Made by a program: the position numbers and the translations under genes. Positions 3,676 through 58,097 of a stretch of DNA of 58,830 nt are shown piece by piece. How positions within the stretch are numbered: the first letter of the stretch is position 1; every line of letters begins with the position of its first letter. The notes beneath the pieces are model-generated. The model searched no databases and had not been told where the DNA came from. It saw only the letters and a program-made list of their open reading frames with translations. The DNA comes from Patescibacteria group bacterium. Lineage in GTDB: Bacteria > Patescibacteriota > Patescibacteriia > UBA2591 > JABMQE01. The stretch spans positions 1 through 58,830 of the forward strand of contig JAHIMF010000062.1 of NCBI GenBank assembly GCA_018896645.1, read 5' to 3'.

Positions 3676-4896
3676 TTATTCTATCACTCCCCCGCCGAGA
3701 ACTTCATTCTTAGAATAAAAAACAACTGACTGGCCAGGGGTTATTGCGCGTTGGGATTTTTTGAATTTCACAAAAATTTTGTGTTGTTTTGTGATATTTT
3801 TGGTTAAAACAGCCTCAACCGCTGGGTGCAGGTACCGAATCCTCGCTCGACACTTCAGTGGAAACTTTGGTTCAAACCCTGAAATCCAGTTGATATTCTT
3901 GGCTGTGAGCTGATCTTTAAATAAGAGTTCCTGATCAAATTTATTAGCCACATACAAAATATTCTTCTGATAATCTAATTTTACCACATAAAACGGGCCA
4001 ATGCCACCGATAAGAATTTCCCGGCGCTGGCCGATTGTGTATAATGGCAGGCCTTGATGCTCGCCGATGACTGAACCGGGTTTAATCCCCTTCTCTTTGA
4101 CACCGTCGAGGGTGATGATGGGACCGGGTTTGAGTTTGAGATGACGGCGGAGGAAATCATAATGCCGTTTATCTTTAATAAAACAAATGCCTTGAGATTC
4201 GGCCTTCTCGAACACTGGCAATTTTTTCTTTTTAGCGACTTTGCGGACTTGGGGTTTGGTGTAATCACCGATTGGAAATAAACAATGTTTGAGTTGGGCT
4301 TGGGATAAGGTCCAAAGGAAGTATGATTGGTCTTTGGCTTTATCGTTAGCCATTCGTAACTGGTAACTGGTAACTAGTAACTTAGTTTGTTTTTTTGCTT
4401 TCTTGTTTTTTTGCTTTCTTGTTTTTTTGACGTAATGACCAGTGGCAATATAATCACAGTCAAGCCTTTTAGCGCGTTTTAAAAACTCACCAAACTTGAC
4501 ATATTTGTTGCATTCAACGCAAGGATTAGGAGTGCGACCGCGAGAGTATTCGTCTAAAAAATTATCAACCACGCGTTTCTTGAAAATTGATTTCATATTC
4601 ATGGTGTAGAGTTTGATATTGAGCTTGTCGGCAACGCGCCGGGCATCTTCATAGGCCTCGATAGAGCAACATTTGTTTTCGGGTAAGATAGATTGGGTCA
4701 AGGGACCCAATCTACCCCCAAGCTGGGTGGGTCGGATCCCTTGACCCGACCCGGTTAAACTCTCTGACCAGAATTTCATAAAAATACCGATGACCTCATA
4801 ACCCTGTTCCAATAACAAAGCAGCGGCGACTGAAGAATCAACGCCGCCGGACATGGCTACAAGAACCTTTGGCTTATTTTTATTCATAATAATCAA
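3676..4896 (-). CDS. mnmA: tRNA 2-thiouridine(34) synthase MnmA, carrying two in-frame insertions
   Basis: SGGVDSS PP-loop, TPNPCVECN, ATGHY, KDQSYFL and GICFI motifs. The likely start is MNKNK at 4887. Confidence 0.92.
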   Translation of the reverse strand: MIIMNKNKPKVLVAMSGGVDSSVAAALLLEQGYEVIGIFMKFWSESLTGSGQGIRPTQLGGRLGPLTQSILPENKCCSIEAYEDARRVADKLNIKLYTMNMKSIFKKRVVDNFLDEYSRGRTPNPCVECNKYVKFGEFLKRAKRLDCDYIATGHYVKKTRKQKNKKAKKQTKLLVTSYQLRMANDKAKDQSYFLWTLSQAQLKHCLFPIGDYTKPQVRKVAKKKKLPVFEKAESQGICFIKDKRHYDFLRRHLKLKPGPIITLDGVKEKGIKPGSVIGEHQGLPLYTIGQRREILIGGIGPFYVVKLDYQKNILYVANKFDQELLFKDQLTAKNINWISGFEPKFPLKCRARIRYLHPAVEAVLTKNITKQHKIFVKFKKSQRAITPGQSVVFYSKNEVLGGGVIE

Positions 4897-5107
4897 AATC
4901 GATTTTAATTGATGAGTGATCTTCTAAAATGTAGTTACGGGCTGAAGAAAATTGATAATCTTCTGGGCGCTCGCATAAACCGGCTTTGGTTGGATTGTTG
5001 TGTATATAGTTTAATTTTTCATCAAACTTGTGCGGAGTTAAAACATTGAAATCGTAAAATTTAGGTTGCCAGATACGATATTTGAGACCACGCCGGTGTG
5101 CCCTCAC
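4880..5107 (-). pseudogene. C-terminal remnant of a REP-associated tyrosine transposase (RAYT / IS200-like Y1 family)
   Basis: 'WQPKFYDFNVL...KLNYIHNNPTKAGLCERPEDYQFSSARNY' matches the RAYT C-terminus. The N-terminal HUH/Tyr part is missing because uppP ends at 5181. A 9-bp GC hairpin (GGGTTGAGC/GCTCAACCC, about 5118..5139) lies next to it. Confidence 0.55.
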
Positions 5108-5180
5108 CTGTTGGGTGGGGTTGAGCCTCTGCTCAACCCGTTGGGGCGCGAGCTGAGGCTCTTGTCTACCCGTGATGAAT

Positions 5181-5978
5181 CTACAACAAAATCAAAATCG
5201 CTGCTCCCAACAAAATCCGATAAACCGCAAACAATTTAAATCCAAATCGTTTTATAAATGCTAATAACAATTTAATCGCTATAAAACCGCTAATAGCAGC
5301 AGCCGCAAAACCCACTAACAAGCTCTTTGCTTCTTCTATAACAATCCCTTCTCGCAATAAATTAAACAACTCATAGCCGGCGGCAGCGGCAATAATCGGA
5401 ATAGAAATCAAAAAGGAAAACTCCACAGCTGTTTTTCGATCCATCTTAGTCAGCATGCCAAAGCTCATAGTAACCCCACTGCGCGAAGTTCCGGGAATAA
5501 GAGCTAACGCCTGACTTAACGCCACTGTAATTGTTTGAAAAATTCCAACAGAATTAACATTTTTGGTTTTAAAATGAGCTCGCTTGCTGTAACTGTCTGC
5601 CAGCCATAAAACTAAACCCCAAAAGATCAAATTGGCAGCTACCACAATATTGGAACGGAAATTATTTTCAACCAAATCCTTGAATAAAAAACCAGCCAAT
5701 CCGGCTGGAATAATAGATAAAATAATCAAAGCTCCAAGGCGAGCATTAGCTTCCTGTCCCCTGCCCCTGCCAAAAACACCCTTGAATATATCTCTCAACT
5801 TTTTACGAAACGCAAACAAAACCGCGACTAATGTTCCCAGGTGAACAATTACATCAAAATCCAAACCCTGGTCACGAATACCTAAAATCTTGGGCACTAA
5901 AATCAAATGCCCAGAGCTGGAAATTGGCAAGAACTCTGTTAATCCTTGGATAATGCCGAGAATGATGGGATGGGACAT
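5181..5978 (-). CDS. uppP: undecaprenyl-diphosphate phosphatase
   Basis: 265 aa. 'GIIQGLTEFLPISSSGHL' and 'PGTSRSG' are BacA/UppP signatures. Confidence 0.92.
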   Translation of the reverse strand: MSHPIILGIIQGLTEFLPISSSGHLILVPKILGIRDQGLDFDVIVHLGTLVAVLFAFRKKLRDIFKGVFGRGRGQEANARLGALIILSIIPAGLAGFLFKDLVENNFRSNIVVAANLIFWGLVLWLADSYSKRAHFKTKNVNSVGIFQTITVALSQALALIPGTSRSGVTMSFGMLTKMDRKTAVEFSFLISIPIIAAAAGYELFNLLREGIVIEEAKSLLVGFAAAAISGFIAIKLLLAFIKRFGFKLFAVYRILLGAAILILL

Positions 5979-6077
5979 ACGTTAAAAATAAAAATTTACT
6001 ATTCATTATTTACTATTTACTATTCACCAATCAAACAACTTCCAAACTTCATTAGGTAAAAATAAAAAGAATAGTAT

Positions 6078-6128
6078 CAGCCAGAGGCTGACCCCTCCAA
6101 AGGCGGGCAGGCACCCTTTGGCTGGAAT
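6078..6128. repeat. GC-rich REP-like palindrome, family 1 (...CCAAAGGCGGGCAGGCACCCTTTGGCTGGAAT)
   Basis: Hairpin CCAAAGG/CCTTTGG ending in GGCTGGAAT. Related copies at 24429, 25450, 42988, 51837 and 55624. Confidence 0.8.
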
Positions 6129-6159
6129 AATAAATAGTAAATAATAAATCACCCAAGTC

Positions 6160-7848
6160 TCACCTATCATTCTGATCATCGTTTTTATTTTTCTTTTTCC
6201 CGTCAAAGGCCACGGTTCCCTGACTCATAGCGTCTTTTAAAGAAACTTCTTCGGGTACTTTTTTAGTTACCGGCTCGGGGCCGGCACTGGGTTGTGGCTG
6301 GGCGGAACCTGATGGTCGTCTGGGCGCTCTAGCCGGTTTAACTTCTCCGCTTCTTACCTTTTGCAAACACTCCCGGCAATAAACTGGCCGGGCTGGGTCC
6401 GGCTTAAAGGGTAAATCCGTCTTTTCACCACAATGAGAGCAAGTAGCTTCAAATTTAGGTGAGGTATCTCTACCCGCCGACCCGGTTGGACGAAATCCTA
6501 CTTTTTTTCCGGCCCCTCCGCCATCCCCTTCACCAACGCCATTTTCCCGGCCCTCGTCCATCATTCCGCTCCAGCGATTTATTTTTTCCTCAACCTCTTT
6601 TCGGGGTTCAGCATAGCGTTCACGCGAAATTTTAATTATTTTTTCACGATTTCCTTCTTGGATGTCTGCGGCCAGAGGCGGCAGGGTACCGGCAGAAAAA
6701 GGAGCCGAAGACACGCCATCAATCATCAACTTCATATAAACATCAAATTTGGCTAAATTTACCAAATCTGTTTCAGTAAATTCTGGCTCAAACTCTTTGA
6801 CTACCGCTTCGGCATCAGCTGCACCAATCCGAAAACACATAATAGTTCCCACATTACCAAATACCGCTGCTTGAACTGTCTCGTCTAATTGCTCAATATA
6901 CTGATGCGCAATAATAAGATCAAGGCGATATTTTCGGGCTTCGGATAAAATATTAGCAAATGACTCGGTGGCAAAATTTTGGAACTCGTCAACATACAAG
7001 TAAAAATCTTTGCGCTCTTCTTCTGGTATATCAACTCGGCTCATAGCCGCCAATTGAACCTTGGTAATCATAATCGCGCCTAATAATGCCGAAGAATCTT
7101 CGCCGACACGGCCTTTTGCTAAATTCATAATAAATATCTTCTTGGTATCCATTATCTCGCGCATATCTAATTTTGATTTCACCTGGCCAACAATATTTCT
7201 AATCAAAAAAGTTGATAAAAATTGGCCAACCTTATTTTGAATTGGAGCGATTGCTTCGGATTGAAACCTATCCGGGTATTTTGAATATTCATCAACCCAA
7301 AAAGATCGGACCACCGGATCAGTAACTTTACTGATTACTTTTTTCCGATATGCCTTATCAACTAACAGTCTCATAATCCCCAGCAAAGAACTGCCGGGAT
7401 ATTCTAAAAGAGCTAAAATAGCATTCCGTAAAACATATTCCAAACGCGGACCCCAAGAATCTGCCCAAATCTTTTTAAAGACTCCCACCAAACCCGAGGA
7501 AACTAAGTGGCGATGGCTAGCGTCAACTTGTTCCAAAACATTAAAGGCAACAGGAAAGTCTAAGTCCGCCGGATTAAAATAAACCACATCATTAACCCTG
7601 TTTGATGGAATGTAATCAAGAATTTTATCCGCAATATCGCCATGGGGATCAACTAGAGCCACCCCATTACCCGCCCGAATATCCTGAATAATCATATTTT
7701 CAATAACTGTTGTTTTTCCCATACCGGTTTTACCAATCAAATACATATGCCGGCGACGGTCATCTTCTTTGATACCAAATTTCACCCGTCGATTGCGGAA
7801 ATTGGTTTCGGCTAAAAGAGTTAAGTTTTGATCGTTATCTGTGGGCAT
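6160..7848 (-). CDS. VirD4/TraG-TraD-like coupling ATPase (DUF87-type P-loop) with C-terminal CxxC...CxxC zinc ribbon
   Basis: Walker A GKTGMGKTT and Walker B 'FYLYVDEFQNF'. C-terminus CSHCGEKTDLPFKPDPARPVYCRECLQ. The start is probably MPTDND at 7848 rather than 7896. Confidence 0.7.
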   Translation of the reverse strand: MPTDNDQNLTLLAETNFRNRRVKFGIKEDDRRRHMYLIGKTGMGKTTVIENMIIQDIRAGNGVALVDPHGDIADKILDYIPSNRVNDVVYFNPADLDFPVAFNVLEQVDASHRHLVSSGLVGVFKKIWADSWGPRLEYVLRNAILALLEYPGSSLLGIMRLLVDKAYRKKVISKVTDPVVRSFWVDEYSKYPDRFQSEAIAPIQNKVGQFLSTFLIRNIVGQVKSKLDMREIMDTKKIFIMNLAKGRVGEDSSALLGAIMITKVQLAAMSRVDIPEEERKDFYLYVDEFQNFATESFANILSEARKYRLDLIIAHQYIEQLDETVQAAVFGNVGTIMCFRIGAADAEAVVKEFEPEFTETDLVNLAKFDVYMKLMIDGVSSAPFSAGTLPPLAADIQEGNREKIIKISRERYAEPRKEVEEKINRWSGMMDEGRENGVGEGDGGGAGKKVGFRPTGSAGRDTSPKFEATCSHCGEKTDLPFKPDPARPVYCRECLQKVRSGEVKPARAPRRPSGSAQPQPSAGPEPVTKKVPEEVSLKDAMSQGTVAFDGKKKNKNDDQNDR

Positions 7849-7867
7849 ATAAAATATTTTTAAAAAA

Positions 7868-8005
7868 TCAACCAAGCTGTTGCAATAGTAAGGCAATCGT
7901 TGCCGCTGCCGTTACAAAAATGGAAATAACCGCCACTACTACATTAACCAGCACTAAAGTCATTGAAATATCAAATCTTTTCTTTTTGAAAAATGGAAAT
8001 TTCAT
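7868..8005 (-). CDS. 45-aa single-pass membrane mini-ORF upstream of the ATPase
   Basis: Hand translation gives MKFPFFKKKRFDISMTLVLVNVVVAVISIFVTAAATIALLLQQLG. Sits between the membrane protein gene and the ATPase gene. Confidence 0.3.
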   Translation of the reverse strand: MKFPFFKKKRFDISMTLVLVNVVVAVISIFVTAAATIALLLQQLG

Positions 8006-8143
8006 AAATATTAAAAAAACTAGAAATAAAGCCATTCGACAAACTCAGGCCAGGAAAATTAAGAAATAAAGGGTCGAGTGTTAAATTTGAAAATTGTTAT
8101 CCTTAATTTCTTAGTTTCTTTATTTCTCCTCGCCTTCCAGTTA

Positions 8144-9788: not shown

Positions 9789-10949
9789 TTATTCCAAATC
9801 AACCACATTATATCGTCCATCATCCAATCTCTTAAACTTACTCTTGTCCGAAAGCGCCAAAAGCACGGTGCCGGGTTTCACCATCCGTTGCTTTAGCACC
9901 TCATCAATTATTTCTTCGCGAGCTAAAGGCCCTTTCTTTTTTATAATACCAACAATAACATCAGGCACTATTCCGGGAATATAGCCCCAGTTTTTTAGAG
10001 CGTACACACCCCGGCCAACTAGGATATACTTATCACCCATAATTAACTCATTATGGACAGTAGCCGGGTTAGCGGTTTTGGAGTCAAAACCCTGCTTATT
10101 AATTGCCTCGGCAATCTCGTTAAAATGCAATGGCTTGCCAGTTTTTTCCAGCACTAAATAAATCTTATCGCTCATTCTTTTGGGAACAATGGTTCGCCAA
10201 TCAATCAAACCCCATTCGCCAAAAGAATTTCTCTTGGTTTTAGCGCTGGCTTCCAGGGCTGACAAAATTATTTTATCGGTTGCCTCATAATCTTTATCAT
10301 GAGAATAATCTTTAAAACCAGCCACCAAATTCTCTGCTAAGGTTGGTTTGCCTTGGTTTTCGATAAAGCTATGCAACTCATCTAAAATTTTTCTAAAAAG
10401 CTCAACATCGGCAATCTTTAATTTCCAGCCCGGCATAAAATATTCATCTGCCCTTACCTTTTCTAAATTTTTATCTAAAAGCTTGGAAATAATAAAAAGG
10501 AGGGCTTGTTTTCCAAAATTGGAAACCGATTCATCTTCACTTATCTCTAAAAGTTTGTTTACTAAAAAGTCTTCCTGCATAATCCCGCCATGGAATTCTA
10601 AAGTATCAAAAACAACAGCCTCAAACGGACTCACTAAATCTTTAAACTTGCCGTCTTGTTTGATCTTCTTGATCGCTCTGCTTTCTATCTGCCGGATTCT
10701 TTCGCGAGTAACTTTATAAAACTTACCAATCGCTTCTAGAGTTTGCTTTTTTATTTCCTCGGCTTCATACAAGGCATAGCGGCGTTTAAGAATCTCAACT
10801 TCTTGTTTGCTTAAGACAGCAAAAAGCCCCGCAATTAATTCTTGAGGTTGAATTTGCCCTTTTCTCTCGGCTTGCTGTTCTCGAAGCACCTCATCAAGCA
10901 GGGAATCGGTTTTTTGATTTTTCGATTGGTTGTCATTGTCATTCATCAT
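9789..10949 (-). CDS. sigma-70 region-4-like HTH protein with C-terminal HARE-HTH/winged-helix modules
   Basis: 'LSKQEVEILKRRYAL...TLEAIGKFYKVTRERIRQIESRAIKKIK' is region 4. 'KIYLVLEKTGKPLHFNEIAEAI...VHNEL...ILVGRGVYALKNW' is HARE-HTH-like. Confidence 0.6.
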   Translation of the reverse strand: MMNDNDNQSKNQKTDSLLDEVLREQQAERKGQIQPQELIAGLFAVLSKQEVEILKRRYALYEAEEIKKQTLEAIGKFYKVTRERIRQIESRAIKKIKQDGKFKDLVSPFEAVVFDTLEFHGGIMQEDFLVNKLLEISEDESVSNFGKQALLFIISKLLDKNLEKVRADEYFMPGWKLKIADVELFRKILDELHSFIENQGKPTLAENLVAGFKDYSHDKDYEATDKIILSALEASAKTKRNSFGEWGLIDWRTIVPKRMSDKIYLVLEKTGKPLHFNEIAEAINKQGFDSKTANPATVHNELIMGDKYILVGRGVYALKNWGYIPGIVPDVIVGIIKKKGPLAREEIIDEVLKQRMVKPGTVLLALSDKSKFKRLDDGRYNVVDLE

Positions 10950-11270
10950 ATATTTAATCTTTCTTGCATGAGAACAAAAGAAACTAAGAAATAAAGAAAC
11001 TAAGAAATAAAGGGCTAAATGTCAAATTTTATAAAATTATTATCCTTTATTTCTGTATTACTTTATTACTTTATTTCCCTGAATTTTTCTAACAACTATT
11101 TTCATGCTGACTTTATCTAATATTAGCTAAAAATAAGGCAATCCCTTATTACACAAAATAAGTATAACATAAACCAAAAAATATGTCAACGAAAAAAAAT
11201 TTATTCCAAAAATTTTTATCAAAAAAACAGCCCTATTAGAGAACTGCTTCTATACTCCTTAACTTTATCA

Positions 11271-11848: not shown

Positions 11849-12958
11849 TTAATCTTCATCCCTTAGTTCCTCAAATAACTTCTTCTCTTTCCTGCTCAAC
11901 TTTTGCGGTGTCTTGACTATAATCTCTACCAAATGGTCTCCCCTGCCTCGGCCGCGGAGATACGGAATGCCGCGGTCTGACAGTTTGAATATTTTACCAG
12001 TTTGGGTGCCAGTGGGAATTTTAAGCTTAACCTTGCCATCCAAGGTTTCAACATCAATTTTATCGCCAAGAGCGGCTTGGGAAAAAGTTATCTCTTCTTG
12101 AGTAATGACATCATCTTCTTCGCGCTTAAAACGCGAGTGCTCGCGGATGATAAATGTAATATATAAATCTCCGGGTGCGCCACCCCTGATTCCAGCCTCA
12201 CCCCGGCCAAGCAGGCGAATTGATTTACCAGCAGAGATCCCAGCTGGCACTTTGAATTTAATTTTTTCTTTACTCTGAACTATGCCAGCGCCCCTGCATT
12301 GGCTGCATTTTTGACTAGGAACTTTGCCTTCTCCCTGGCAATCCGGACAAATACCGCTTGTTTGAATAGAGCCCAAAATTGTCCGCTGAACCCGAGTCAC
12401 CTGTCCAGTACCGCCGCAAGTTTTGCAGGTCTCAATTTTCGTACCTGGTTCAGCGCCATTGCCATTACACTTAGGACAAATCACATTTTTATCTAATTCA
12501 ATTTCTTTTTCGGCGCCAAAAGCGGCTTCTTTAAAATCAAGGGCCATTTGAATTTCTATATCCTGGCCGTGTTGAGTTCTGGTCCTGGCTCTTGCGGAAC
12601 GACCGCCCATACCAAATAAATCACCAACAATATCGCCCAAATCATCAAAGTCAAAATTAACTCCGCCGCCGCCTGAACGAAAAGCATCGGCAAAACCGGA
12701 AAAGTCGCGAAAACCGTTAAATCCGGAAAAACCGCCGCCAGCTTGGGCTTGTTCAAATGTTTGGCCGAACTGGTCATATTGTTTTCTTTTTTTCGGATTG
12801 CTCAAAACCTGATAGGCTTCATTGGCTTCTTTAAATTTTTGCTCGTCACCGCCGGATTTATCTGGATGATGCTGGTGCGCGAGTTTTCTAAAAGCCCGCT
12901 TGATTTCTTCTGAAGAAGCGGTTTTGGGGACTCCTAGGATGTCGTAGTAATTAGACAT
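11849..12958 (-). CDS. dnaJ: molecular chaperone DnaJ
   Basis: J-domain (YYDILGV...HPD), G/F region and four CxxCxGxG zinc motifs. Confidence 0.97.
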   Translation of the reverse strand: MSNYYDILGVPKTASSEEIKRAFRKLAHQHHPDKSGGDEQKFKEANEAYQVLSNPKKRKQYDQFGQTFEQAQAGGGFSGFNGFRDFSGFADAFRSGGGGVNFDFDDLGDIVGDLFGMGGRSARARTRTQHGQDIEIQMALDFKEAAFGAEKEIELDKNVICPKCNGNGAEPGTKIETCKTCGGTGQVTRVQRTILGSIQTSGICPDCQGEGKVPSQKCSQCRGAGIVQSKEKIKFKVPAGISAGKSIRLLGRGEAGIRGGAPGDLYITFIIREHSRFKREEDDVITQEEITFSQAALGDKIDVETLDGKVKLKIPTGTQTGKIFKLSDRGIPYLRGRGRGDHLVEIIVKTPQKLSRKEKKLFEELRDED

Positions 12959-12990
12959 GATACAGCAGATTACAGCAGATTTTTATTTTA

Positions 12991-13102
12991 TACAGCAGAT
13001 TTAAGCAGATTATAACGGATTATCACTTTGAAATTTTTTAGGGATTAAATATCCTTTATATTCCAAAAATAATCTGCTAAAAATCTGCTTAAATCTGCTG
13101 TA
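12991..13102. repeat. 21-bp perfect inverted repeat of locus-specific 'words' upstream of dnaJ
   Basis: TACAGCAGATTTAAGCAGATT (12991..13011) pairs with AATCTGCTTAAATCTGCTGTA (13082..13102). The word TACAGCAGAT is also tandem at 12961..12980. Confidence 0.85.
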
Positions 13103-13144
13103 TGATTTGAAAAAAGGTGGAGCCATCGCAAAAGGACAGCCCCA

Positions 13145-19264: not shown

Positions 19265-19404
19265 AATATATTTCTCCTTTTGGGGAAAATGATTCACTTT
19301 TTTTGTTGAGTCATTCCCCTTAAATTTCTAATTCACCTAATTTCTAATTTCTAATAAAATTTCTAAGATCAAAAACTAAAAGTTTTTTAACATTTGACAT
19401 TTTG

Positions 19405-19495
19405 CCCTCGGCCTTACCCTCAAGCTCCGAGGCTCTCTTCGAGAGCCTGAGGGCTCCTCAGAGCCTCGAACGGCGGGGCCGAAAGGGAATTTGGC
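19405..19495. repeat. GC-rich repeat, family 2 copy, inside AT-rich inverted 'word' arms
   Basis: CTCGGCCTTACCCTCAAGCTCCGAGGC... is homologous to 9588..9650. Flanked by AATTTCTAATT-type arms (19320..19365 and 19500..19550). Confidence 0.75.
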
Positions 19496-19571
19496 ATTTA
19501 TTAAAAATTTAGTATTAGAAATTAAGCATTTTATTAGGAATTAGGTGAATTTTAAAATGGTGAATTAAAAA

Positions 19572-20857: not shown

Positions 20858-21520
20858 TTAAATTAACGTCTTAGCATATTTAAGTAAATTGATATTGCTG
20901 CGATAATCCATGCGCATGGGGCCAATAATCCCAATCATTTTGTTTTTGCTTTTAGTAATCACTAAACCACAATCAGCGCCAAAAGGATTGTCGGACCCGA
21001 TCCTCACTTCCACGTCATTCCCCACTTCGTTGTAGATTTGGGAAACAACCTCATCAAGATGGTCAATGACCGAACTAAAATTATAAACCAAATCATACTT
21101 ATGAAACTCTGGCTGGGAAAAAACATTGGAAATGCCAGTGTAGTAAACATCGTCTTTGCTAAAACCAACCACTACCGCTTCTTTGGAAATTTCTGCAATT
21201 CTTTTGGCGATGTCTTTCAGATTGCTCATATTCTTAAATCCTGGGACTTCTGTTATTTTACCACTTTTAATAAGATTTTCTAAGTAAAATTTATAGCCAG
21301 CTTCAGTGGGCACCCGGCCGGCAGAAATGTGAGGCTGAACAATTAAACCCTGCTTTTCCATCTCTGCCATTTCGTTACGAATAGTAGCAGATGAAATGTC
21401 ATTAAAATGCTTGTCAACCAATAAACTCGACCCCACTGGCCCAGCGGTCCTGATATGCTCTTCTATGATGTATTTTAATAGCTTATTTTGTCTGTTCTGC
21501 ATGTTCTTAGTATAAACCAT
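20858..21520 (-). CDS. hrcA: heat-inducible transcription repressor HrcA (short form, 220 aa)
   Basis: N-terminal wHTH 'IIEEHIRTAGPVGSSLLV...SSATIRNEMAEMEKQGLI.QPHISAGRVPT'. A CIRCE lies immediately upstream. Confidence 0.88.
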   Translation of the reverse strand: MVYTKNMQNRQNKLLKYIIEEHIRTAGPVGSSLLVDKHFNDISSATIRNEMAEMEKQGLIVQPHISAGRVPTEAGYKFYLENLIKSGKITEVPGFKNMSNLKDIAKRIAEISKEAVVVGFSKDDVYYTGISNVFSQPEFHKYDLVYNFSSVIDHLDEVVSQIYNEVGNDVEVRIGSDNPFGADCGLVITKSKNKMIGIIGPMRMDYRSNINLLKYAKTLI

Positions 21521-21523
21521 ACT

Positions 21524-21550
21524 TTAGCACTCGTCAAGCGAGAGTGCTAA
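21524..21550. promoter_or_regulatory. CIRCE operator TTAGCACTC-N9-GAGTGCTAA (perfect consensus)
   Basis: Read directly: TTAGCACTC at 21524..21532, GTCAAGCGA spacer, GAGTGCTAA at 21542..21550. Confidence 0.95.
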
Positions 21551-27894: not shown

Positions 27895-28062
27895 ATGTCA
27901 TCACGGGCCCGCCATTTTTTCATTCCGAACGGAGCCGCAGCGCAGTGAGGAATCCCTTAAACGTGGATAATGGAAAGGCGGGTGGTAACCCCCCGTTTAA
28001 GGGATTCCTCGCTTTGCTCGGAATGAAAAAAGGGCGGCGACTCCGTTCGGAATGACGTTCGT
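27895..28062. repeat. nested perfect palindromes (MITE/REP-like) between ftsI and murF
   Basis: 17-bp GAGGAATCCCTTAAACG (27947..27963) pairs with 27994..28010. 14-bp CATTCCGAACGGAG (27921..27934) pairs with 28041..28054. Confidence 0.85.
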
Positions 28063-29791: not shown

Positions 29792-29887
29792 AGTTAAAAA
29801 TCCATTGTTACATTGTTAAATTGTTACATTGCTAATACAAATGATTAACAATTTAACAATGTAACGTAACAATTTAACAATGAAAAC

Positions 29888-32104: not shown

Positions 32105-33868
32105 TCACCACACCAACATCACCACTTTCTTAGCCTTAGGCAAAACAATACTTTCTTTTCTGTCTCTCTTAAAAAATCTGCTCACTCCTTCTTTGGCCAA
32201 CTTCACTGGTTCTTTAGGACCTTCTGACGACCCTGGCGTATTCCCGCCACTCTCACGCCGATGCTGGCGCCATTGCAGAATCATAACGATTATACAAGCA
32301 ACAAAAATTGTTAACACAGCAAATGATATTGGCAAAGCGTATGAATAACTAAATGCTGACCAAGATGGCGAATAGATGGCCATAATTTCGTACCAGCCAA
32401 CTCTCATTGCCCAAAAAAATAACACCCCAAATATTCCCAAAGTCACCACTAAACTCAAAAGTTGAAATACCCAAGCAATAGCCTGCGCTTTTCTATTTTT
32501 TGACAAAAATTGCAGTAAACTAAATCCAATAAATATCAAGCCAAAAGGTGAAAACAACCAGCCAATCACGGATACCATATAGATAATCAGCCATTGCAGC
32601 CATTGCCAACTTCTTACCGGCGAACCAGCGCCCACCTTGTCATTATCATCTGCATCCCGAATTACTAAATCATTGGTCATCTCGCTGGTCATCATGTGGC
32701 GATATAAATAAGTTAGCCAGTATTTTTTTTGCGCCGGCTGAATCAAGGGTTCACCCTTAATATCATAAGCTAAATCTTGTATTTGATTCTTCTTGATTTT
32801 ATCAGCATACGAGGTTGTGAATCCGGGTATGTCCTTTTTATGGTCAGCAAGAACATAAAGATGAATGGGTATATTGGGTGCATATTGATGACTGTTCTGC
32901 TCGTAATATAATCCTTGGCGATTGAAATAGGCATTGAACCAAAATTTTTCTAACTGGGGACGATAATAATTTTCATCTAAACCAGCGGCATATTTCCATG
33001 ATTCTGCAGTTGGATAATTTTTTTCTTTGGCAATTATTAAAGGATAGTCACTGGCTTTTGAATCTTCATAAGGCACCTGATTGACAAGATCTTCAATAAT
33101 TTGATTTATCACTTCTTCACCAGTAGTTTTTCTGATTAAATCGCCATACCCAATTTTTTTCAAATGAGCAATTCGAGGGCCATCTAAATAAAGATTATCA
33201 GAAATCTGAACTACTTTCGGTTGCGTAGTAATTGAAGAAATCCGTAACGGATAAATAATTGCACTTGAGGCAAATTCAATTTTCAAAGGTGTGGCATGGC
33301 CCTGTTTCAAACCCTCCCCAACCTCATCGGCCTCAACTGCGCTCGTATTAATCTTAACCGCAATAAAGTACCAATTATTCTCAATATAATCATTTAATAT
33401 ATAACCGGATTCCTCTGGGTATTCATAATCATTCTGATTCAACCATTTAGCCAAAGCGCCCGAATCTGTTGCTTGCAAAACCGTGATATCATAATAATCA
33501 ACCTTTTTGGTCTCAACCACAATCACTGCCTGTTCATCATTTGCCTTGCCAGCCAGCTCCATCATGGGCATTGGTCCTCGCCAAAGAACTGGTCTGGTAA
33601 TCTCTGCGAGTGAAGTAAAAATTTCATCAGAACCCTTGGTTACTTCTGGTTTTGAAGGAATCGGAATAACCCAAGCAAAATCCTTGGCGTCCCCGGAAAA
33701 ACTTACTGAAAGCACCATGGTTTCCATTCCATTCTCATGAAAAATCACGGCTTTCTGCCCGGTCTCGTTCATATAATAATCCGGCCGCGGCAGAATCATA
33801 CCGTCAGCGTTGCTCATCATCGGGATTGCGAGAGATAATAATATAAGGAGTAAAACGAATTTTTTCAT
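32105..33868 (-). CDS. DUF2330-family secreted/membrane protein
   Basis: Signal peptide, then 'GQKAVIFHENGMETMVLSVSFSGDAKDFAWVIPIPSKPEV', typical of DUF2330. C-terminal TM cluster. Confidence 0.7.
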   Translation of the reverse strand: MKKFVLLLILLSLAIPMMSNADGMILPRPDYYMNETGQKAVIFHENGMETMVLSVSFSGDAKDFAWVIPIPSKPEVTKGSDEIFTSLAEITRPVLWRGPMPMMELAGKANDEQAVIVVETKKVDYYDITVLQATDSGALAKWLNQNDYEYPEESGYILNDYIENNWYFIAVKINTSAVEADEVGEGLKQGHATPLKIEFASSAIIYPLRISSITTQPKVVQISDNLYLDGPRIAHLKKIGYGDLIRKTTGEEVINQIIEDLVNQVPYEDSKASDYPLIIAKEKNYPTAESWKYAAGLDENYYRPQLEKFWFNAYFNRQGLYYEQNSHQYAPNIPIHLYVLADHKKDIPGFTTSYADKIKKNQIQDLAYDIKGEPLIQPAQKKYWLTYLYRHMMTSEMTNDLVIRDADDNDKVGAGSPVRSWQWLQWLIIYMVSVIGWLFSPFGLIFIGFSLLQFLSKNRKAQAIAWVFQLLSLVVTLGIFGVLFFWAMRVGWYEIMAIYSPSWSAFSYSYALPISFAVLTIFVACIIVMILQWRQHRRESGGNTPGSSEGPKEPVKLAKEGVSRFFKRDRKESIVLPKAKKVVMLVW

Positions 33869-34023
33869 AATTTTATGGTTTGGTAATTTATAGTAATACG
33901 ATGGTAACACAGTTGTAATACAGTTGTAACACAGTTGTAATACGATTGTAACTCTGGGTATTACAATTGTATTACTATCGTATTACGCGAGGCGAGCCGC
34001 AGCGAGCCGAGCTTATTACTTTT

Positions 34024-34455: not shown

Positions 34456-34629
34456 ATTAAACACGGATGAGCACGGATTATTTATGTACGGATGGCCACG
34501 GATCACGGATCTGTGATCCGTATAAATCCGTTATTAATCCTTAAAAATCCGTGTTAAACCTTTAAATTACAAAATTTGCTTTAATAATCTTTGTTGATGT
34601 GGAAAACAGTTATACACTTTTGCCATAAG

Positions 34630-37782: not shown

Positions 37783-37992
37783 CTGGCTTGTGCTTTAATT
37801 AGTTAATTGTTAGTAATCAATATCTGTAGTATAATATAAATGTAGTTAAAAGGCAAGAATAATTGTCGTGTTGTTTGTGTAATTTAATGCAAGTGCAGCC
37901 AAAAAGCAAGAAAAACATTAAAGCATGAAAGCACGAGAGCAGAAAAGCAAAAGAATTTGTTTTAATGCTTTTATGTTTTAATGTTTTGATGA

Positions 37993-40305
37993 ATGTACAA
38001 TCTCCAAGTTGCCAAATTAGTTATCTATAACTCTCAAAAGAGTCGTTCGCTCGTCTCTTGCTTTGTTACCCAGCCAAAAATCGGCGAAAAGGAGCGGGGC
38101 GGGCAAATTTTTGTTATCTCGGAAATCCAAAAGACCACATCCGAGTATACTTATCAAAAACTTATAGACAGCCTTATCAAATCAATGAAAGGCTATTATT
38201 ATAATGAAATCAACTATCGGGCCGGACCAATAGAACTTGTTTTTGAGGCTGCTCTGCAAAAAACTAATCAAGAATTAGGCTTTTATCTAACCAATAAAGA
38301 AAACGGCATCAATGACGATTTTCTGAATAATTTGAATGTCCTGGTTGGCGTGGCCCGCAACCATGAAATTCACTTTTCCTTGGCAGGCGATATCAAGGGA
38401 TATCTCATTAGAAAAAATAAAATTTCTGATATTGTTGCCGGCCCCGAAAAACTTCAGGGCCAACACCAAGAATCTCAAAAAATCAATCCCTTAAAAGTCT
38501 TTTCCCATGTGATTTCCGGACATTTGGAAACTGACGACGGCATACTGTTCTGCACCGAAAGCCTGTTGGACTACTTTTCTTTAGAAAAATTAAAAAAAAT
38601 CATTGCTGATAACCAGGCCTCTAAAGTCTGCCAAAACCTTCAGGATCTCTTAATAGAAATTGATGATAAATCTGCCTTGGCAGCTATTGCCTTAAAACTC
38701 CTGGCTACTCCCCAAATTGAGAAAAAAGGTCTATCATACCCGCCACATCACCCAGAAGAAAAGGGTTTCCCCGCGCTCCTAAAAAAAAGTGAAAAAAACA
38801 GCGTTCAAGACTCTATTGCTAAACTTTTGGATCAACAAACAGAAACTAATCAAATTATATCACCCCGCTTGGTTTCAAATCTAAAAAAAATATTTACCTC
38901 AAAACACACCCGACAGAAAAAAAGCAAAACATCCCAAGAAAAAACTATGTTTAGGACGATCAAGAATTACAGCCCGACTAATAATCTACCCAAAATTAAA
39001 CATTTCCCCGGCTATAAAATCACTCACAAATTTGGATCTATCCTAAAAATAGCGGCTGTGCCATTTGAACTTTTAGGCAAATTCTTTAAAAAAAACCCGG
39101 CCCGCTTTGATAAACTATCAACCAGCAGTTTAGAAAAAATCTCCAGCCAAGCCAGAACACCCAAAAAATATCTTCGCAGGCTCCCCCTGTCCAGTAAGGC
39201 TTTACTTTTTGTTTGCATTATCTTGGGCCTGCTTTTTATCCAAAGCATCTTTCTTCTAAATAAAAGACGGGATAACCAGCAAGATATCCAAACCTATAAC
39301 CAGCTGTTAGAGCAAGTGGAAACCATGCAAAACGAAACCGAAGCTTCTTTAATTTATAGCGACGAAGAAAAAGCGCGATTACTCCTTAAGAATATATTAG
39401 AATTAATCGCCGGCCTGCCGCAAAACACCGAGGAGAGAGCAGAAAAAGCCTCAACCTTGCTCGCAAAAGCTAATGCCCAGCTCAATCAACTTAATCGCCT
39501 AAGGACTATTAAAAACCCCAAGCAACTCTTGGACTTTAGCGCCCTGACCTTTTTTGCCGAAGAATTGCCGTCCGAAATAATCAAGTTACAAAAAAATATC
39601 TATACCTATCGCTCTCGCGATAATAGCTTTTATGTTATCAATCTAGGGACCGGGGAAATTGATAATCTTCAAAATTCCTCGGGCGAGATTGGCAAAATTA
39701 CTAAAATTAAAAAATTTGACGAATCCTCGTTTCTTCTTTATCACAACTTGGAGGGGGTTGCCAAGTTTGATACGAAAAAAAATACAATAATCTCTTTTGG
39801 ATTATCCAGCCGAGAAGATATTATCATAGCTGATGTAGCCGCTTATAATAATCAACTTTATGTCCTGGCCCCCAATAAGAACCTAATTTTAAAATACAGC
39901 CCAGTGGCTGGCAGCTTTAGCCGCGAAACCGAGTGGCTCAAAGATGGGACTGATATTAGAGAAGCAATATCTTTTATCATAGATAGCTCCCTTTGGATAC
40001 TTAAAGCCGATGGTTCAGTCATCAATTTGATGAAAGGGGTGGAAGCAGAGTTTACTAGGCCCACGATTGAGCCTCTGCTTATTGGGCCCACAAAAATCTG
40101 GACAGATGCTGACTCTAAAAATCTTTACATCTTGGATTCTCCCAGCAAAAGAATTGTCATCATCACTAAAGAGGGCATACTTAAAGAACAGCTCACCAGC
40201 AAATCGTTCGCTGATTTAAAAGATTTTGTGGTTGACGAGGAAGCCGGGAAAATCTATGTTTTAGCGGGCGCCAAAATCTACGAGGTAGACCTCGGTCTTG
40301 AATAA
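37993..40305 (+). CDS. large hypothetical membrane protein (N-domain, central TM, C-terminal repeat/propeller-like region)
   Basis: 770-aa uninterrupted ORF with a TM at 'ALLFVCIILGLLFIQSIFLL'. Confidence 0.6.
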   Translation: MYNLQVAKLVIYNSQKSRSLVSCFVTQPKIGEKERGGQIFVISEIQKTTSEYTYQKLIDSLIKSMKGYYYNEINYRAGPIELVFEAALQKTNQELGFYLTNKENGINDDFLNNLNVLVGVARNHEIHFSLAGDIKGYLIRKNKISDIVAGPEKLQGQHQESQKINPLKVFSHVISGHLETDDGILFCTESLLDYFSLEKLKKIIADNQASKVCQNLQDLLIEIDDKSALAAIALKLLATPQIEKKGLSYPPHHPEEKGFPALLKKSEKNSVQDSIAKLLDQQTETNQIISPRLVSNLKKIFTSKHTRQKKSKTSQEKTMFRTIKNYSPTNNLPKIKHFPGYKITHKFGSILKIAAVPFELLGKFFKKNPARFDKLSTSSLEKISSQARTPKKYLRRLPLSSKALLFVCIILGLLFIQSIFLLNKRRDNQQDIQTYNQLLEQVETMQNETEASLIYSDEEKARLLLKNILELIAGLPQNTEERAEKASTLLAKANAQLNQLNRLRTIKNPKQLLDFSALTFFAEELPSEIIKLQKNIYTYRSRDNSFYVINLGTGEIDNLQNSSGEIGKITKIKKFDESSFLLYHNLEGVAKFDTKKNTIISFGLSSREDIIIADVAAYNNQLYVLAPNKNLILKYSPVAGSFSRETEWLKDGTDIREAISFIIDSSLWILKADGSVINLMKGVEAEFTRPTIEPLLIGPTKIWTDADSKNLYILDSPSKRIVIITKEGILKEQLTSKSFADLKDFVVDEEAGKIYVLAGAKIYEVDLGLE

Positions 40306-40977: not shown

Positions 40978-41502
40978 TCATGCTTTCGACTCCCGAATCG
41001 CATCTAATACCCGCACTAATCCACGCAAATTACCAGCCATAACATTAACAAACCCAGAAATCGGAGCTTTGATTGAACCCACAAGCCGTGCCAACAGTTC
41101 ATCCCTATTGGGTAGCTTAGCCAATTCCCCCACTTTCGCCGTGTCAATAAATTTTTGTTCTAAAATCCCGCCCTGGATTTTCAGGGCCTCGTGTTGCTTA
41201 GCAAAATCCGCCATTATTTTGGCCGGCGTTACTTCGTCCTCACTGCTCACGGCAAAGCTCATCGGACCTTCCATGGCTTTGATATCAACATCCGAAAACT
41301 TAGAATTTTTTAAAGCAATGTCAAAAAGCGAGCGTTTGATTACTAACAAACGGGTATTTGCTTCCCGGAGCTTACTCCGCAGGTCTTCCATTTCGGAAAC
41401 TTTAAGCCCAGAATAGTCAGCGAAAACAGCGCCCTTGACATCCTCTAAGGTTTGTTCTAAATCCTTTACAATTTCTTTTTTTTGTTGTTTAGTCTTAGCC
41501 AT
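40978..41502 (-). CDS. rplJ: 50S ribosomal protein L10
   Basis: 174 aa. 'FADYSGLKVSEMEDLRSKLRE' and its position upstream of rplL. Confidence 0.92.
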   Translation of the reverse strand: MAKTKQQKKEIVKDLEQTLEDVKGAVFADYSGLKVSEMEDLRSKLREANTRLLVIKRSLFDIALKNSKFSDVDIKAMEGPMSFAVSSEDEVTPAKIMADFAKQHEALKIQGGILEQKFIDTAKVGELAKLPNRDELLARLVGSIKAPISGFVNVMAGNLRGLVRVLDAIRESKA

Positions 41503-41660
41503 AAGTCAATATTTATTATTTACTATTTACTATTTATTATTCATTAAACAAAAATCTGCGATTTTAAGCCGCAGAATATCTGAAAAAACACATTCTTGCC
41601 TGAATAGGTTTTACATGCCTTAGCACTACCTATTTTCTGCGGCTACATATTGTTGTTATC
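41503..41660 (-). promoter_or_regulatory. structured 5' leader of rplJ (candidate L10 autoregulatory leader)
   Basis: Long-range helix GCCGCAGAA...TTCTGCGGC enclosing an AATAGGT/ACCTATT hairpin, between the promoter and the rplJ ATG. Confidence 0.45.
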
Positions 41661-48268: not shown

Positions 48269-48500
48269 GTCATTGCGAGTCTCGGCGAACGAAGCGAGCT
48301 GAGGCGTGGCAATCCCGTTGATATCCTGTGGACGTTGTTACTCTCCCTGTCTACAGGGTTTACCCTGAACCGATTCTGGTACAGGGTTTACAACGGGATT
48401 GCCACGCTCTTTTCTGGACTTACTGCCTACCTATATTTGATTATCGCCATGGTCAGTCTTGCTTGGCAAGTCCTACAGTCGCTCGCAATGACACCGATTA
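48269..48500. repeat. nested palindromic element (MITE/REP-like composite)
   Basis: GTCATTGCGAG (48270..48280) pairs with CTCGCAATGAC (48483..48493). 15-bp 48306..48320 pairs with 48393..48407. Inner CCCTGT-CT-ACAGGG hairpin at 48346..48359. Confidence 0.85.
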
Positions 48501-49587: not shown

Positions 49588-49612
49588 GGGCTTAGTCACT
49601 TGTCACTGGCAA

Positions 49613-49990
49613 CTAGTCACTGGGGTTTATGTTTCCCCCGACTGATGCTATGAGACCATTAATTAATTTTAATACTGTTACACTTTTGTTAAATAAATCA
49701 ATATAAGTGTCTTTGGAAATATATTGTAATTCATAAGATAGGATTAATAATGATTGAACTTCTTGGATTGAACCCCTGGCTTGATAATAAAATCTTTTTT
49801 TGTCTTTATAAAAGAATCTGCCAAAACCTTCAGCAATGTTTGAACAAACAGAAACAATTGCTCTTCTCATTTGACTAGTTATACCATAAAATTCTTCCTT
49901 GGGAAAATTCTTTGTTACCCTGTATATATCTTTGGACAATTCCTTAGCTTTTTGCCAAGCATCCAATTGATAGAAATTTTTTATACCCAC
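49613..49990 (-). CDS. four-helix-bundle protein (23S rRNA intervening-sequence protein / Avd-like family)
   Basis: 'FYQLDAWQKAKELSKDIYRVTKNFPKEEFYGITSQMRRAIVSVCSNIAEGFGR'. Confidence 0.8.
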   Translation of the reverse strand: MGIKNFYQLDAWQKAKELSKDIYRVTKNFPKEEFYGITSQMRRAIVSVCSNIAEGFGRFFYKDKKRFYYQARGSIQEVQSLLILSYELQYISKDTYIDLFNKSVTVLKLINGLIASVGGNINPSD

Positions 49991-50124
49991 AGAACTTAAT
50001 CTTAAATATAACTTAATTAAACTCGTCCCTAGTGACTAGTGACTGACAACTAATGACGCTCTTAAGATATCACTAGCCGCCAGAATAATCTAGTTGAAAA
50101 TTCCAGCGACTAGTGACCTATGTC

Positions 50125-52217: not shown

Positions 52218-52739
52218 CTAACATCTCGTTGGGATTAGTTTTTTTATAATAAGGGCGAATATTATACCAAGGATTGCGCCCGCAAAAATATCACCGGGAT
52301 AGTGAACCCCAACATATACCCGGGATAGGGCAATCAAAGCCGCCCCAACTAAAAACCAAATGCCAATTTTCTTGTTGTACAAAAAAATTGTACAGGCCAG
52401 AGCAAAGGCAATTGTAGTGTGATCCGAAGGAAAAGATTTGCCTGCAAACAACTGTTCAATTAATTTGTTCACCTGGAAACTGACATAAGGACGAGGCCGA
52501 TAAAAAAATAAGCCCAAACCACGCGCCATCCCCCAGCCCAGTAGCCCTGCCAGCACTGCGCGAGCCGCATTCATCCTAGTCAATATTGCCCCTTGCTTGT
52601 GCGGCGGCAAAAATCCTAAAGCCAAAATTAAAAAAATCATCAACCAAATAGCGTAGGATGCAAAAAAGATTCCCAAAAAATCCAGGACATCATTCTTGCC
52701 GGCTAAGTTGTTGATGAGTTGGAAGAGTTGTAAGTCCAC
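52218..52739 (-). CDS. PAP2-family phosphatase (BcrC-like undecaprenyl-diphosphatase candidate)
   Basis: 'KSFPSDHT' and 'SRVYVGVHYPGD' motifs. Confidence 0.8.
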   Translation of the reverse strand: MDLQLFQLINNLAGKNDVLDFLGIFFASYAIWLMIFLILALGFLPPHKQGAILTRMNAARAVLAGLLGWGMARGLGLFFYRPRPYVSFQVNKLIEQLFAGKSFPSDHTTIAFALACTIFLYNKKIGIWFLVGAALIALSRVYVGVHYPGDIFAGAILGIIFALIIKKLIPTRC

Positions 52740-52847
52740 TCTACGATTTATTATTTATTATTTATTATTTACTATTTATTATTCTTTCGTTCAGTACTTT
52801 TTCTCTCTTCCATATCCTACGATGAATAATAAATAGTAAATAATAAA

Positions 52848-53714: not shown

Positions 53715-53834
53715 GTCTTACAATTTATTATTTAATAATTTATTATTTATTATTCTTTAAGTTGCCTTCCATGTTTGAAAAATACTAAGGCGGTCAAAAA
53801 AAAATAAATAATAAATAGCTAAATAATAAATAAA

Positions 53835-57327: not shown

Positions 57328-57546
57328 ATCTAAAAATAATAACAAAAATAAAAATCATAATCCAAATCTACAAATACTACAAATGCTACCAATACTGCGA
57401 GAATTCTATTCGGGGCATTCGCCTGCCCGCCAGAGCCACCTTTTTATATAGATGACTTTAGTTGGTGATTGCACCGTCTAAATCTCTACTGACTTATTTC
57501 AACTGGCTGTGGCAGGCGGGAATACCTTTGTAGATTTGGATTTTGT

Positions 57547-57912: not shown

Positions 57913-58097
57913 AGAATTTATTATTAATAATTATAGTTATGGGAAATTGATGCTTATTAAATTATAAAACAAAATCCATTGTTAAATTGTTACATTGTTG
58001 CATTGCTCACATCAACCGAAAAACAATTTAACAATTTAACAATATAGCAATGCTCGTATCTTTCTTTGACATCACCAGAGCATTAGTAATATTAGTA

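Follow-up and report, generated by a model that had tools for sequence, protein, structure and literature searches.

The elements described to date that most resemble those considered here are the intervening sequences (IVSs) of bacterial 23S rRNA and the tandem heptamer repeats that precede genes in several bacterial groups. Our subject is a set of hairpins whose arms consist of short, AT-rich words repeated in tandem, which occupy many spacers in a 58,830-nucleotide (nt) stretch of DNA from a Patescibacteria group bacterium (contig JAHIMF010000062.1 of assembly GCA_018896645.1; this whole stretch is called the window), among them the spacer at 5979-6159 that holds the focal element. IVSs are known from Salmonella, Leptospira and Coxiella burnetii, where they interrupt helices 25 and 45, form a stem of ~20-30 base pairs (bp) from complementary ends, and optionally carry an open reading frame (ORF) for the protein S23p (PMC4990558). 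IVS stems are cleaved by RNase III; the terminal stem of the Coxiella IVS measures 28 bp and contains tandem GACAGAT heptamers in a copy number that varies among strains; and S23p is a homopentameric four-helix bundle that, in Coxiella, is apparently not expressed (PMC4990558). The rRNA genes of the Candidate Phyla Radiation (CPR) also carry short IVS-type inserts and 23S_rRNA_IVP ORFs (PMC11270868). How rRNA IVSs and the PF05635/S23p proteins arose, spread and function has gone unexplained for about 30 years, and heptamer repeats have been a separate unsolved oddity.

Cyanobacterial STRR sequences are heptamer repeats, and are grouped with the GGGNATC repeats as comparable intergenic tandem heptamers. 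The GGGNATC repeats, found in Xanthomonas and Nostoc, are G-rich and were proposed to form quadruplexes; they are enriched between co-directional genes near stop and start codons, are transcribed, and vary in copy number with a preferred small number (PMC4692102). TAACTGA heptamers occur as direct repeats before start codons in marine Beggiatoaceae, cyanobacteria and Bacteroidetes (MacGregor 2015, PMC4679880). Their distribution is patchy, with two to six tandem copies ending a few nt before the start codon of genes that have no Shine-Dalgarno (SD) sequence, and no link to PF05635 was reported (PMC4679880).

The hairpins studied here, like IVSs, have stems of about this length formed by complementary ends; these ends carry tandem heptamer-type repeats, and the loop may hold an ORF for a four-helix-bundle protein of family PF05635 (S23p/Avd-like). 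Unlike IVSs, nearly all copies lie between protein-coding genes and not in rRNA, about a dozen vocabularies and hundreds of arrays are present in one 1.33-Mb genome, and excision by RNase III is here only predicted. Insertion into helix 25 or 45 applies to one copy of one family; because the copies listed in the window are intergenic, we regard them as relatives of IVSs, not as IVSs in the strict sense. The start-proximal arrays resemble TAACTGA arrays in their length, position, patchy distribution and lack of an SD sequence. However, the TAACTGA case involves one dominant word, nearly always direct and with a single inverted pair, whereas here there are many words, ~37% of arrays are paired, and a link to PF05635 is found. 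Similarly, the intergenic position and small, variable copy number recall the GGGNATC repeats, but the present words are AT-rich, have periods of 7-11 nt and form inverted pairs. A full-text literature search returned no account of word hairpins spread through the intergenic regions of a Patescibacteria genome, nor of any homology between such hairpins and IVSs. The preliminary description of the window, made from its sequence, knew of no described element with this behavior, which is only partly right: the pieces (IVSs, S23p, TAACTGA leader arrays and heptamer repeats) are already described, and three precedents are close (PMC4990558, PMC4679880, PMC4692102).

The window is contig C43 (C numbers denote contigs) of a 1.33-Mb genome assembly, G000, which has 39% GC, comprises 92 contigs and is 96% complete. 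The order-wide comparison set contains 55 genomes, G000 included; its relatives in this set are order-level except for G001, the sole genome of the same family compared, which belongs to another genus with ~61% protein identity. Gene calls were crude (1186 genes, covering 81% of G000). In the inverted-repeat test, the best gapless repeat in each spacer of 50-450 nt was compared with the maximum of 20 dinucleotide shuffles, and coding stretches of matching length (n = 674) served as controls.

Genome-wide, 229 of 674 spacers beat all 20 shuffles, versus 28 of 674 coding controls. This excess is far above chance, and the architecture is therefore real. The preliminary description had proposed such a shuffle comparison as a check, had listed a series of inverted repeats, each of which we found again with a displacement of a few bases at most, and had seen the pattern in nearly every spacer of the window. 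The last statement was correct as to the pattern, and overstated as to its breadth: 15 of 42 window spacers (~36%) beat all shuffles, and 25 of 42 hold at least one tandem-word array. The arms are 17-36 nt long, 79-100% complementary and 0-35% GC, and they enclose loops of 12-184 nt. When folded as minus-strand RNA (plus-strand for 37900-37992), the spacers form single long hairpins with stems of 20-30 bp; the focal spacer has a minimum free energy of -53.9 kcal/mol (z = -4.4), and eight non-focal spacers have z values of -3.4 to -9.2.

The arms had been described as specific to each locus, which proved incorrect, because a limited vocabulary of about a dozen word families (at least 10-15), with periods of 7-11 nt, is shared across the genome. 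It includes ATTTACTATTTATTATT, GTTAATAAAG, ATTGTTAMATTGTTAC, AATATAAAAATAAAATAATA, CATTAAAGCA, GTAATACNNTT, AATTTCTAATTCACCTAAT, AAGAAATAAAG, GTCACTN and others. The further claim that word families recur far apart is borne out, with up to tens of loci for each family; the focal word, ATTTACTATTTATTATT, forms ~30 clusters, a few of them inside genes. In the families listed, polarity is fixed: a word array is followed by a loop and then by the reverse-complement array. Non-trivial words of 18-27 nt recur in this way at tens of loci. The periods of arrays are mostly 7 and 8 nt, and the density of arrays per base is ~6 times higher in spacers than in genes. Most arrays have 2-5 copies (at most 6.5 in 97% of arrays), and 183 of 488 have an inverted partner in the same spacer. 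Arms of one locus match each other better than they match arms at other loci; for example, C81:5647-5732 and C2:9933-10007 each have 27 of 27 perfect pairs, yet differ in sequence. Arms differ by insertions and deletions of whole words. In some cases, homology extends over the whole element, arms and loop, as with the AAGAAATAAAG-family hairpins at 8056-8127 and 10980-11077, whose loops are identical at 24 of 32 positions, a score reached by none of 2000 shuffles; these loops had already been called related.

One family extends into rRNA. The 23S rRNA gene (C90:13594-16268; locus L139) contains a 175-nt insert at position 583/584 of the Rfam large-subunit model, in a hairpin immediately 5' of a conserved CGUNCCUUUUGUA segment. 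On established 23S numbering, we take this position to be the tip of helix 25, a classical IVS site. The core of the insert (C90:14366-14504) is an ORF-less word hairpin of the AATTTCTAATTCACCTAAT family, which is similar over arms and loop to intergenic copies at C46:20284-20409 (77% over 131 nt) and C42:20183-20313 (74% over 137 nt). It is also similar to window positions 19323-19404 (76% over 85 nt; the window copy is at 19298-19571), and it aligns to further intergenic copies on C7, C37, C35 and C21. Relative to transcription, the intergenic copies have loops in both orientations, with five clear cases, which are too few for a statistic. The spacer at C21:44240-44746, 507 nt long, has arms of this family ~370 nt apart at its extreme ends, the right arm ending 8 nt before the next ATG; it may represent a cargo-carrying or decayed copy. 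The same 23S gene also holds a group I intron (RF00028, 79 bits, L139 4180-4427) and, near its 5' end, a further 19-nt inverted repeat (C90:13710-13774).

We are fairly sure of the identity of these elements as dispersed foldback families that are related in build and vocabulary to cassettes carrying PF05635 genes, with one family homologous to a helix-25 IVS. Because the families are genome-wide and one has a copy inside a 23S gene, they look like a spreading palindromic element and not like ordinary gene signals. On balance, and with the reservations given below, we lean toward the reading that they are IVS-like, dispersed tandem-word foldback repeats that are tolerated by folding out of transcripts and are probably cut by RNase III. 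Many of the hairpins would be transcribed in operon mRNAs, in short co-directional spacers or in a 5' leader, and one in pre-23S rRNA. An AU-rich stem of 20-35 bp would push the insert out of the transcript and bring its flanks together, which would explain tolerance both in rRNA helix tips and between stop and start codons. Such an insert would be nearly harmless, in the manner of an rRNA IVS. The predicted cleavage of long stems by RNase III would cut operon transcripts at gene junctions, and the start-proximal arm would double as an SD-free leader. Candidate routes to new copies are assistance by the cognate four-helix-bundle protein or, between arrays that share a word, recombination or gene conversion. 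G000 has two full-length RNase III genes (C61:10895-11554 and C88:2292-2954; TIGR02191, 242 and 238 bits), which is unusual for a genome of only 1.33 Mb and may be related to the load of long double-stranded RNA stems.

The gene-carrying form of the element is represented in the window at 49594-50044, on the minus strand, where GTCACTN arrays (49594-49607 and 50031-50044) flank a PF05635 gene (49613-49990; Pfam E = 3e-37; Xanthomonas S23p, PDB 2GSC, E = 1e-17). G000 has 19-20 PF05635 matches, and flanking word-array inverted repeats scoring at least 12 accompany 12 of 17 PF05635 genes, versus 23 of 261 small control genes. A cassette consists of an array, a short leader, the ORF, the inverted array (often overlapping the last codons of the ORF) and a few nt, after which comes the ATG of the next gene. 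Four paralogues with 73-84% identity all carry GTCACTN, and their nearest outlier, at 57% identity, carries GTAATCN/GTAATTA. Two paralogues with 75% identity both carry GTTAATAAAG, the word found at the paralogue C39:2302-2673; the paralogue at C57:13172-13552 carries ATTGTTATATTGCTA, and unrelated clades carry unrelated words. Among the four GTCACTN paralogues, four-fold degenerate sites are saturated (28-53% identity), and the non-coding words are still conserved; the arms are therefore kept by selection or by concerted evolution. The junction AGTCACTAGGGACGAGTTTAAT is conserved in three of these four, and purifying selection acts on the proteins. Most cassette words recur at ~4 to >90 other spacers, the counts of AT-only words being inflated, and one recurs nowhere. 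No ORF is present in the loops of the focal element or of the other listed hairpins. The possibility that gene-less hairpins are decayed PF05635 cassettes was rejected, because a profile of 16 full-length paralogues detected no remnant in any gene-less loop.

An unlikely, though serious, alternative is that these components form a recognition system, in which each PF05635 paralogue binds its own tandem word, as RNA or DNA, and the gene-less arrays and hairpins before other genes are its targets; these would make up post-transcriptional regulons or else the cis sites of mobility driven by the protein. Word binding by PF05635 is putative, as it is deduced from the covariation of protein clade and word and from the recurrence of most cassette words at other spacers; several abundant words have no cognate paralogue, and G001 has 16 paralogues but few hairpins. 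Conservation of the arms past synonymous saturation, next to proteins under purifying selection, is in keeping with recognition, as is the presence of the same word before orthologous genes in two genera. However, concerted evolution of dispersed arrays could keep words uniform without a protein. Arrays of mostly 2-5 copies would also suit a homopentamer such as S23p, although the Coxiella protein is apparently not expressed (PMC4990558). Finally, focal-family arrays end at a fixed distance from the ATG (15 of 47 AATARTAAA runs end exactly 9-10 nt before one), and arrays take the place of SD sequences, for which a similar proposal was made in the case of the TAACTGA arrays (PMC4679880). In a more specific form, which we offer tentatively and consider about equally unlikely, PF05635 homopentamers read tandem words of 7-11 nt, one per subunit, making ~17-20 protein-word pairs. 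Arrays located 0-12 nt before the starts of ~10% of genes, often masked by an inverted partner, would then provide combinatorial post-transcriptional control or propagation, and the rRNA IVS would be a special case.

Many hairpins and arrays lie next to coding regions. Among 5' arms, 43% begin at most 12 nt past the upstream stop codon, and the downstream start codon is at most 12 nt from the end of 28 of 75 3' arms (37%) and of 76 of 252 unpaired arrays (30%). Start-proximal arrays replace SD sequences: an SD-like 4-mer is found for 6% of 124 array-led genes versus 18% of 783 others (p = 6e-4). In C16:79810-80061, a divergent spacer that corresponds to G001 locus L129:1884-2086, the mid-spacer promoters GTATATTATACCATAAAA...TTTRCAAACCAA...GGGTATAAT are conserved between genera, and the leader array has switched word family, with AATAATAAATAG in G001 and a CATTAAAGCA hairpin in G000. 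Because this hairpin or array is between the promoter and the ATG, it is within a 5' untranslated region (UTR). In the window, a ATTGTTAMATTGTTAC hairpin fills the entire 96-nt operon spacer at 29792-29887 and must therefore be transcribed with the operon. Both the edge distances and the orthologue comparison thus support the earlier placement of the hairpins in transcribed leaders beside start codons. Promoter-like sites occur at 4.2 per kb downstream of hairpins, 2.4 upstream and 1.7 in loops; given that they are sparsest in loops, a 'split hairpin' with a loop-borne promoter was rejected.

This placement might also be expected of selected RNA devices, in which hairpins process, stabilize or translationally couple operon mRNAs, the stem sets the stop codon of one gene beside the start codon of the next, RNase III yields stable monocistronic units, and the repetition of words is a by-product. 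We consider this explanation less likely still. Arms are often beside stop and start codons, some hairpins fill whole operon spacers and leave no room for a promoter (29792-29887), the folds are stable, and RNase III genes are present. Nevertheless, the same operon junctions are hairpin-free in the sister genus, where the spacers are 4-43 nt, and mismatches of the G·U type do not significantly exceed those of the A·C type on the sense strand (59 versus 42, p = 0.11). Also, the same type of element is found in 23S rRNA and in divergent spacers, and the recurrence of the same words is left unexplained.

G000 and G001 differ in their hairpins. In a comparison of 41 adjacent gene pairs in synteny between the two genera, inverted repeats with a score of 12 or more are present in 10 of the G000 and 2 of the G001 spacers, and none of the 41 has a hairpin common to both genera. 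Median spacer length in these pairs is 120 nt for G000 and 67 nt for G001; where G000 has hairpin spacers of 96-264 nt, the G001 counterparts measure 4, 11, 15, 33 and 43 nt, the 33-nt spacer being the orthologue of 29792-29887. The G001 spacers being short and hairpin-free, these genes can work without the hairpin. The vocabularies are specific to lineages: AATAGTAAATAATAAAT is found 58 times in G000 and 38 times in G001, and is virtually absent from the remaining 53 genomes of the order; GTAATACNNTTGTAATAC matches G000 at 43 sites and G001 at none, with one palindromic site elsewhere in the order; and the word GTAATACNNTT is found in G000 only, among the 55 genomes. PF05635 copy number in the order is very uneven (19, 16, 13, 8, 7 and lower), with zero in 18 of 55 genomes, and counts within one genus are 0, 0, 1, 1, 8 and 13. 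In the 13-copy genome of that genus, 29% of spacers have an inverted repeat scoring at least 13 and the median spacer is 194 nt; in its two zero-copy genomes, the corresponding values are 9% and 12% of spacers and medians of 72 and 117 nt. Over the five genomes sampled, copy number and hairpin load are only loosely related. Inspection by eye revealed no target-site duplication, a point on which no systematic test was made. Of the three explanations originally suggested, a mobile or dispersed element is the best supported, given the homology of 23S and intergenic copies, absence in the sister genus and the lineage-specific vocabularies; protein-binding arrays are a candidate with indirect support, through the pairing of PF05635 clades with words.

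The elements could instead be a mutational by-product, with arrays made by slippage and inverted by intrastrand template switching, and having neither identity as elements nor function. The predominance of 7-8-nt periods, the ~6-fold higher density of arrays in spacers, arms that differ by whole-word insertions and deletions, mostly unrelated loops, and a single array in G001 at a site where G000 has a hairpin are all compatible with this explanation. We nonetheless find it quite doubtful, because the same non-trivial 18-27-nt words, in fixed polarity, turn up at tens of loci, because some families are homologous over arms and loop, the rRNA copy included, and because words are tightly tied to PF05635 genes, co-vary with their clades, and outlast synonymous saturation. 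Hairpins scoring at least 13 are present in 21% of co-directional, 21% of divergent and 12% of convergent spacers, and this equal frequency in divergent and co-directional spacers indicates that they are not simply terminators. Indeed, although some hairpins lie upstream of promoter-like sites and a few are followed by T runs, it is very improbable that they are intrinsic terminators or chance palindromes in AT-rich DNA, given the results with shuffles and coding controls, the long (17-36 bp), AU-rich stems with loops of 12-184 nt, their relative rarity in convergent spacers, and the many hairpins whose ends lie 0-12 nt before a start codon, too close to leave space for a promoter.

The reading that we favor, in which IVS-like foldback repeats spread and are tolerated by folding out of transcripts, has to be weighed against several observations that do not fit it well. 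Most AT-rich families have arms in common but unrelated loops, so that copy-and-paste of whole elements is shown for few families only. At two orthologous starts with a full hairpin in G000, G001 has the start-proximal array alone, made of the same word; 'array first, hairpin later' explains this no worse than insertion does. The alternatives are that arrays come before hairpins or that 5' arms are readily lost. In this assembly, which is 96% complete, no cognate PF05635 gene is present for the abundant words GTAATACNNTT and CATTAAAGCA or for the IVS family, and, as noted, PF05635 remnants are absent from all gene-less loops searched with the 16-paralogue profile. G001 weakens the correlation between copy number and hairpin load, as it has 16 PF05635 copies but inverted repeats in only 11% of spacers. 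Because G·U is only weakly favored over A·C, selection on RNA pairing is not demonstrated. Cleavage of intergenic stems by RNase III is probable but predicted, and spread as an element is unproven, since it is read from comparisons and not from directly seen insertions.

G000 links rRNA IVSs, PF05635 genes and start-proximal arrays of the heptamer type. If this link is upheld, IVSs are the visible part of a widespread class of palindromic elements embedded in transcripts, such elements can inflate the spacers of very small genomes (G000 has 1.33 Mb; the rest of the order has 0.5-1.4 Mb, mostly 0.5-1.0 Mb), and PF05635 gains a concrete, testable ligand. Annotation is also affected, because array-led genes lack SD sequences and assemblies break inside arrays.

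Like REP/REPIN sequences and miniature inverted-repeat transposable elements (MITEs), the word hairpins are short, non-coding, hairpin-forming intergenic repeats with many copies. They differ from REP/REPIN sequences in lacking a conserved REP core, in having tandem arrays for arms and in the mostly unrelated sequence of their loops, and no transposase partner was identified. With regard to MITEs, inverted ends are present, internal sequence is conserved in some families only, and the sole counterpart that might be called 'autonomous', the PF05635 cassette, encodes no known transposase. The combination of a GC-rich core and RAYT does not apply to the word arms; the RAYT-like genes instead fit separate GC-rich modules. 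One class of these consists of CAGCC-NNN-GGCTG mini-hairpins, with 50 genome matches versus 3 for a reversed control, and a second is the GCGTGGCAATCCCG family. A module of the first class is nested in the focal loop at 6078-6124. Since the class is separate from the words, the 'REP' that had been noted in this loop is a distinct element, and plausibly a genuine REP-type module. A RAYT remnant lies nearby at 4880-5191 on the minus strand, an open frame that matches the C-terminal half of the REP-associated tyrosine transposase NF047646 (E = 1.5e-13, profile positions 82-146 of 146). It has no start codon of its own, and GC-rich REP-like sequence takes the place of its 5' side. Elsewhere there are two or three further Y1_Tnp matches (C70:22443-22697 and C66:3513-3695), and the GC-rich repeats may constitute a RAYT/REP system apart from the AT-rich words. 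A GC-rich palindromic family, GAGCGTGGCAATCCCGT...ACGGGATTGCCACGCTC, is present at 48304-48407 and 27909-28037 in the window and at C91:9692-9799; its loops are near-identical between contigs (95.7% over 47 nt), and it is conventionally MITE- or REP-like, unlike the word hairpins.

Genes in the window are nearly all on the minus strand, and include uppP, dnaJ, dnaK, a PBP2-type transpeptidase gene and gpmI; the known RNA families detected by Rfam in the window are three tRNAs, with nothing further. In the focal spacer, the left arm is a TTTAYTATT array (5995-6025), which in minus-strand RNA is the 3' arm, AATARTAAA, and ends 16 nt before the uppP start codon (5978). The right arm, GAATAATAAATAGTAAATAATAAAT (6125-6149), is the 5' arm and begins 10 nt past the stop of gene 6160-7896. 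Over 6001-6025 and 6125-6149, the arms are 25 nt long and 92% complementary, and the nested GC-rich module is not of the AT-rich word family. Two more focal-family hairpins are located at 52746-52853 (arms 52755-52784 and 52824-52853; z = -7.3), between genes 52218-52739 and 52848-53714, and at 53723-53831 (arms 53723-53758 and 53796-53831), between the gpmI stop (53835) and the start of gene 52848-53714. An unpaired AATARTAAA array at 41510-41546 (minus strand) stops 9 nt before the start of gene 40978-41502, and another focal-family array, at 58683-58712 near the contig end, has no inverted partner identified within the window.

In the AAGAAATAAAG family, the hairpin at 8056-8127 has arms at 8056-8072 and 8101-8117, and that at 10980-11077 (arms 10980-11013 and 11044-11077) is in the leader of a sigma-factor-like gene, 9789-10949, with a promoter-like TTGACA-N17-TATACT site upstream of the hairpin. 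A CAGCAGATT-word hairpin at 12957-13113 (z = -9.2) has arms of 32 nt (12980-13011 and 13082-13113) that are 88% complementary with a 22-nt perfect core, and extra words continue to the dnaJ start codon (12958). The AATTTCTAATTCACCTAAT-family copy at 19323-19556, whose arm and loop are homologous to the 23S helix-25 insertion, has arms at 19325-19348 and 19533-19556 and a nested GC-rich insert at ~19400-19487. The ATTGTTAMATTGTTAC hairpin proper, at 29807-29865 before the PBP2-type transpeptidase gene, has perfect 20-nt arms (29807-29826 and 29846-29865). A GTAATACNNTT hairpin with an 11-nt period occupies 33893-33986 (arms 33893-33921 and 33958-33986), its left arm entering the start of gene 32105-33910; inverted arrays of the words CACGGAT and ATCCGT follow at 34465-34560. 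In a divergent spacer, the CATTAAAGCA-family hairpin at 37912-37987 (arms 37912-37933 and 37966-37987; z = -7.5) stops 5 nt short of where the plus-strand gene 37993-40305 starts. Near the end of the window are a AATCCAAATCTACAAA hairpin at 57353-57548 (arms 57353-57374 and 57527-57548), with a 152-nt loop containing GC-rich modules, and the second ATTGTTAAATTGTTAC-family hairpin, at 57978-58043 (arms 57978-57999 and 58022-58043).

The DnaK protein is at most 80% identical to those of metagenome-assembled genomes (MAGs) of the Patescibacteria/Parcubacteria group, and the best metagenome match is 54% identical. A cyanobacterial origin was rejected, as just 8 HIP1 sites are present and DnaK assigns the genome to Patescibacteria. 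One Logan contig is identical to the window and terminates within a word array. At 21524-21550, just upstream of the start of gene 20858-21520, the window contains a perfect CIRCE operator (TTAGCACTC-N9-GAGTGCTAA), which stands after a promoter-like TTGACA...AATATA site. CIRCE-like AATTAGCACTCT palindromes are present in the DnaK-region loci of related MAGs (L024, L026 and L028). Word-type inverted repeats, with words such as AAGCAGCTAACGACAGCTAAAGGCAGC, TAGCGAGTAGGCAGTAGCGGGTAGCGAGTA and GTCATGAGTCATGAGAA, are found in DnaK-region spacers of the distant MAGs L090, L049, L067 and L086, the first of which is a non-CPR organism, Thermoflexus sp. (Chloroflexota).

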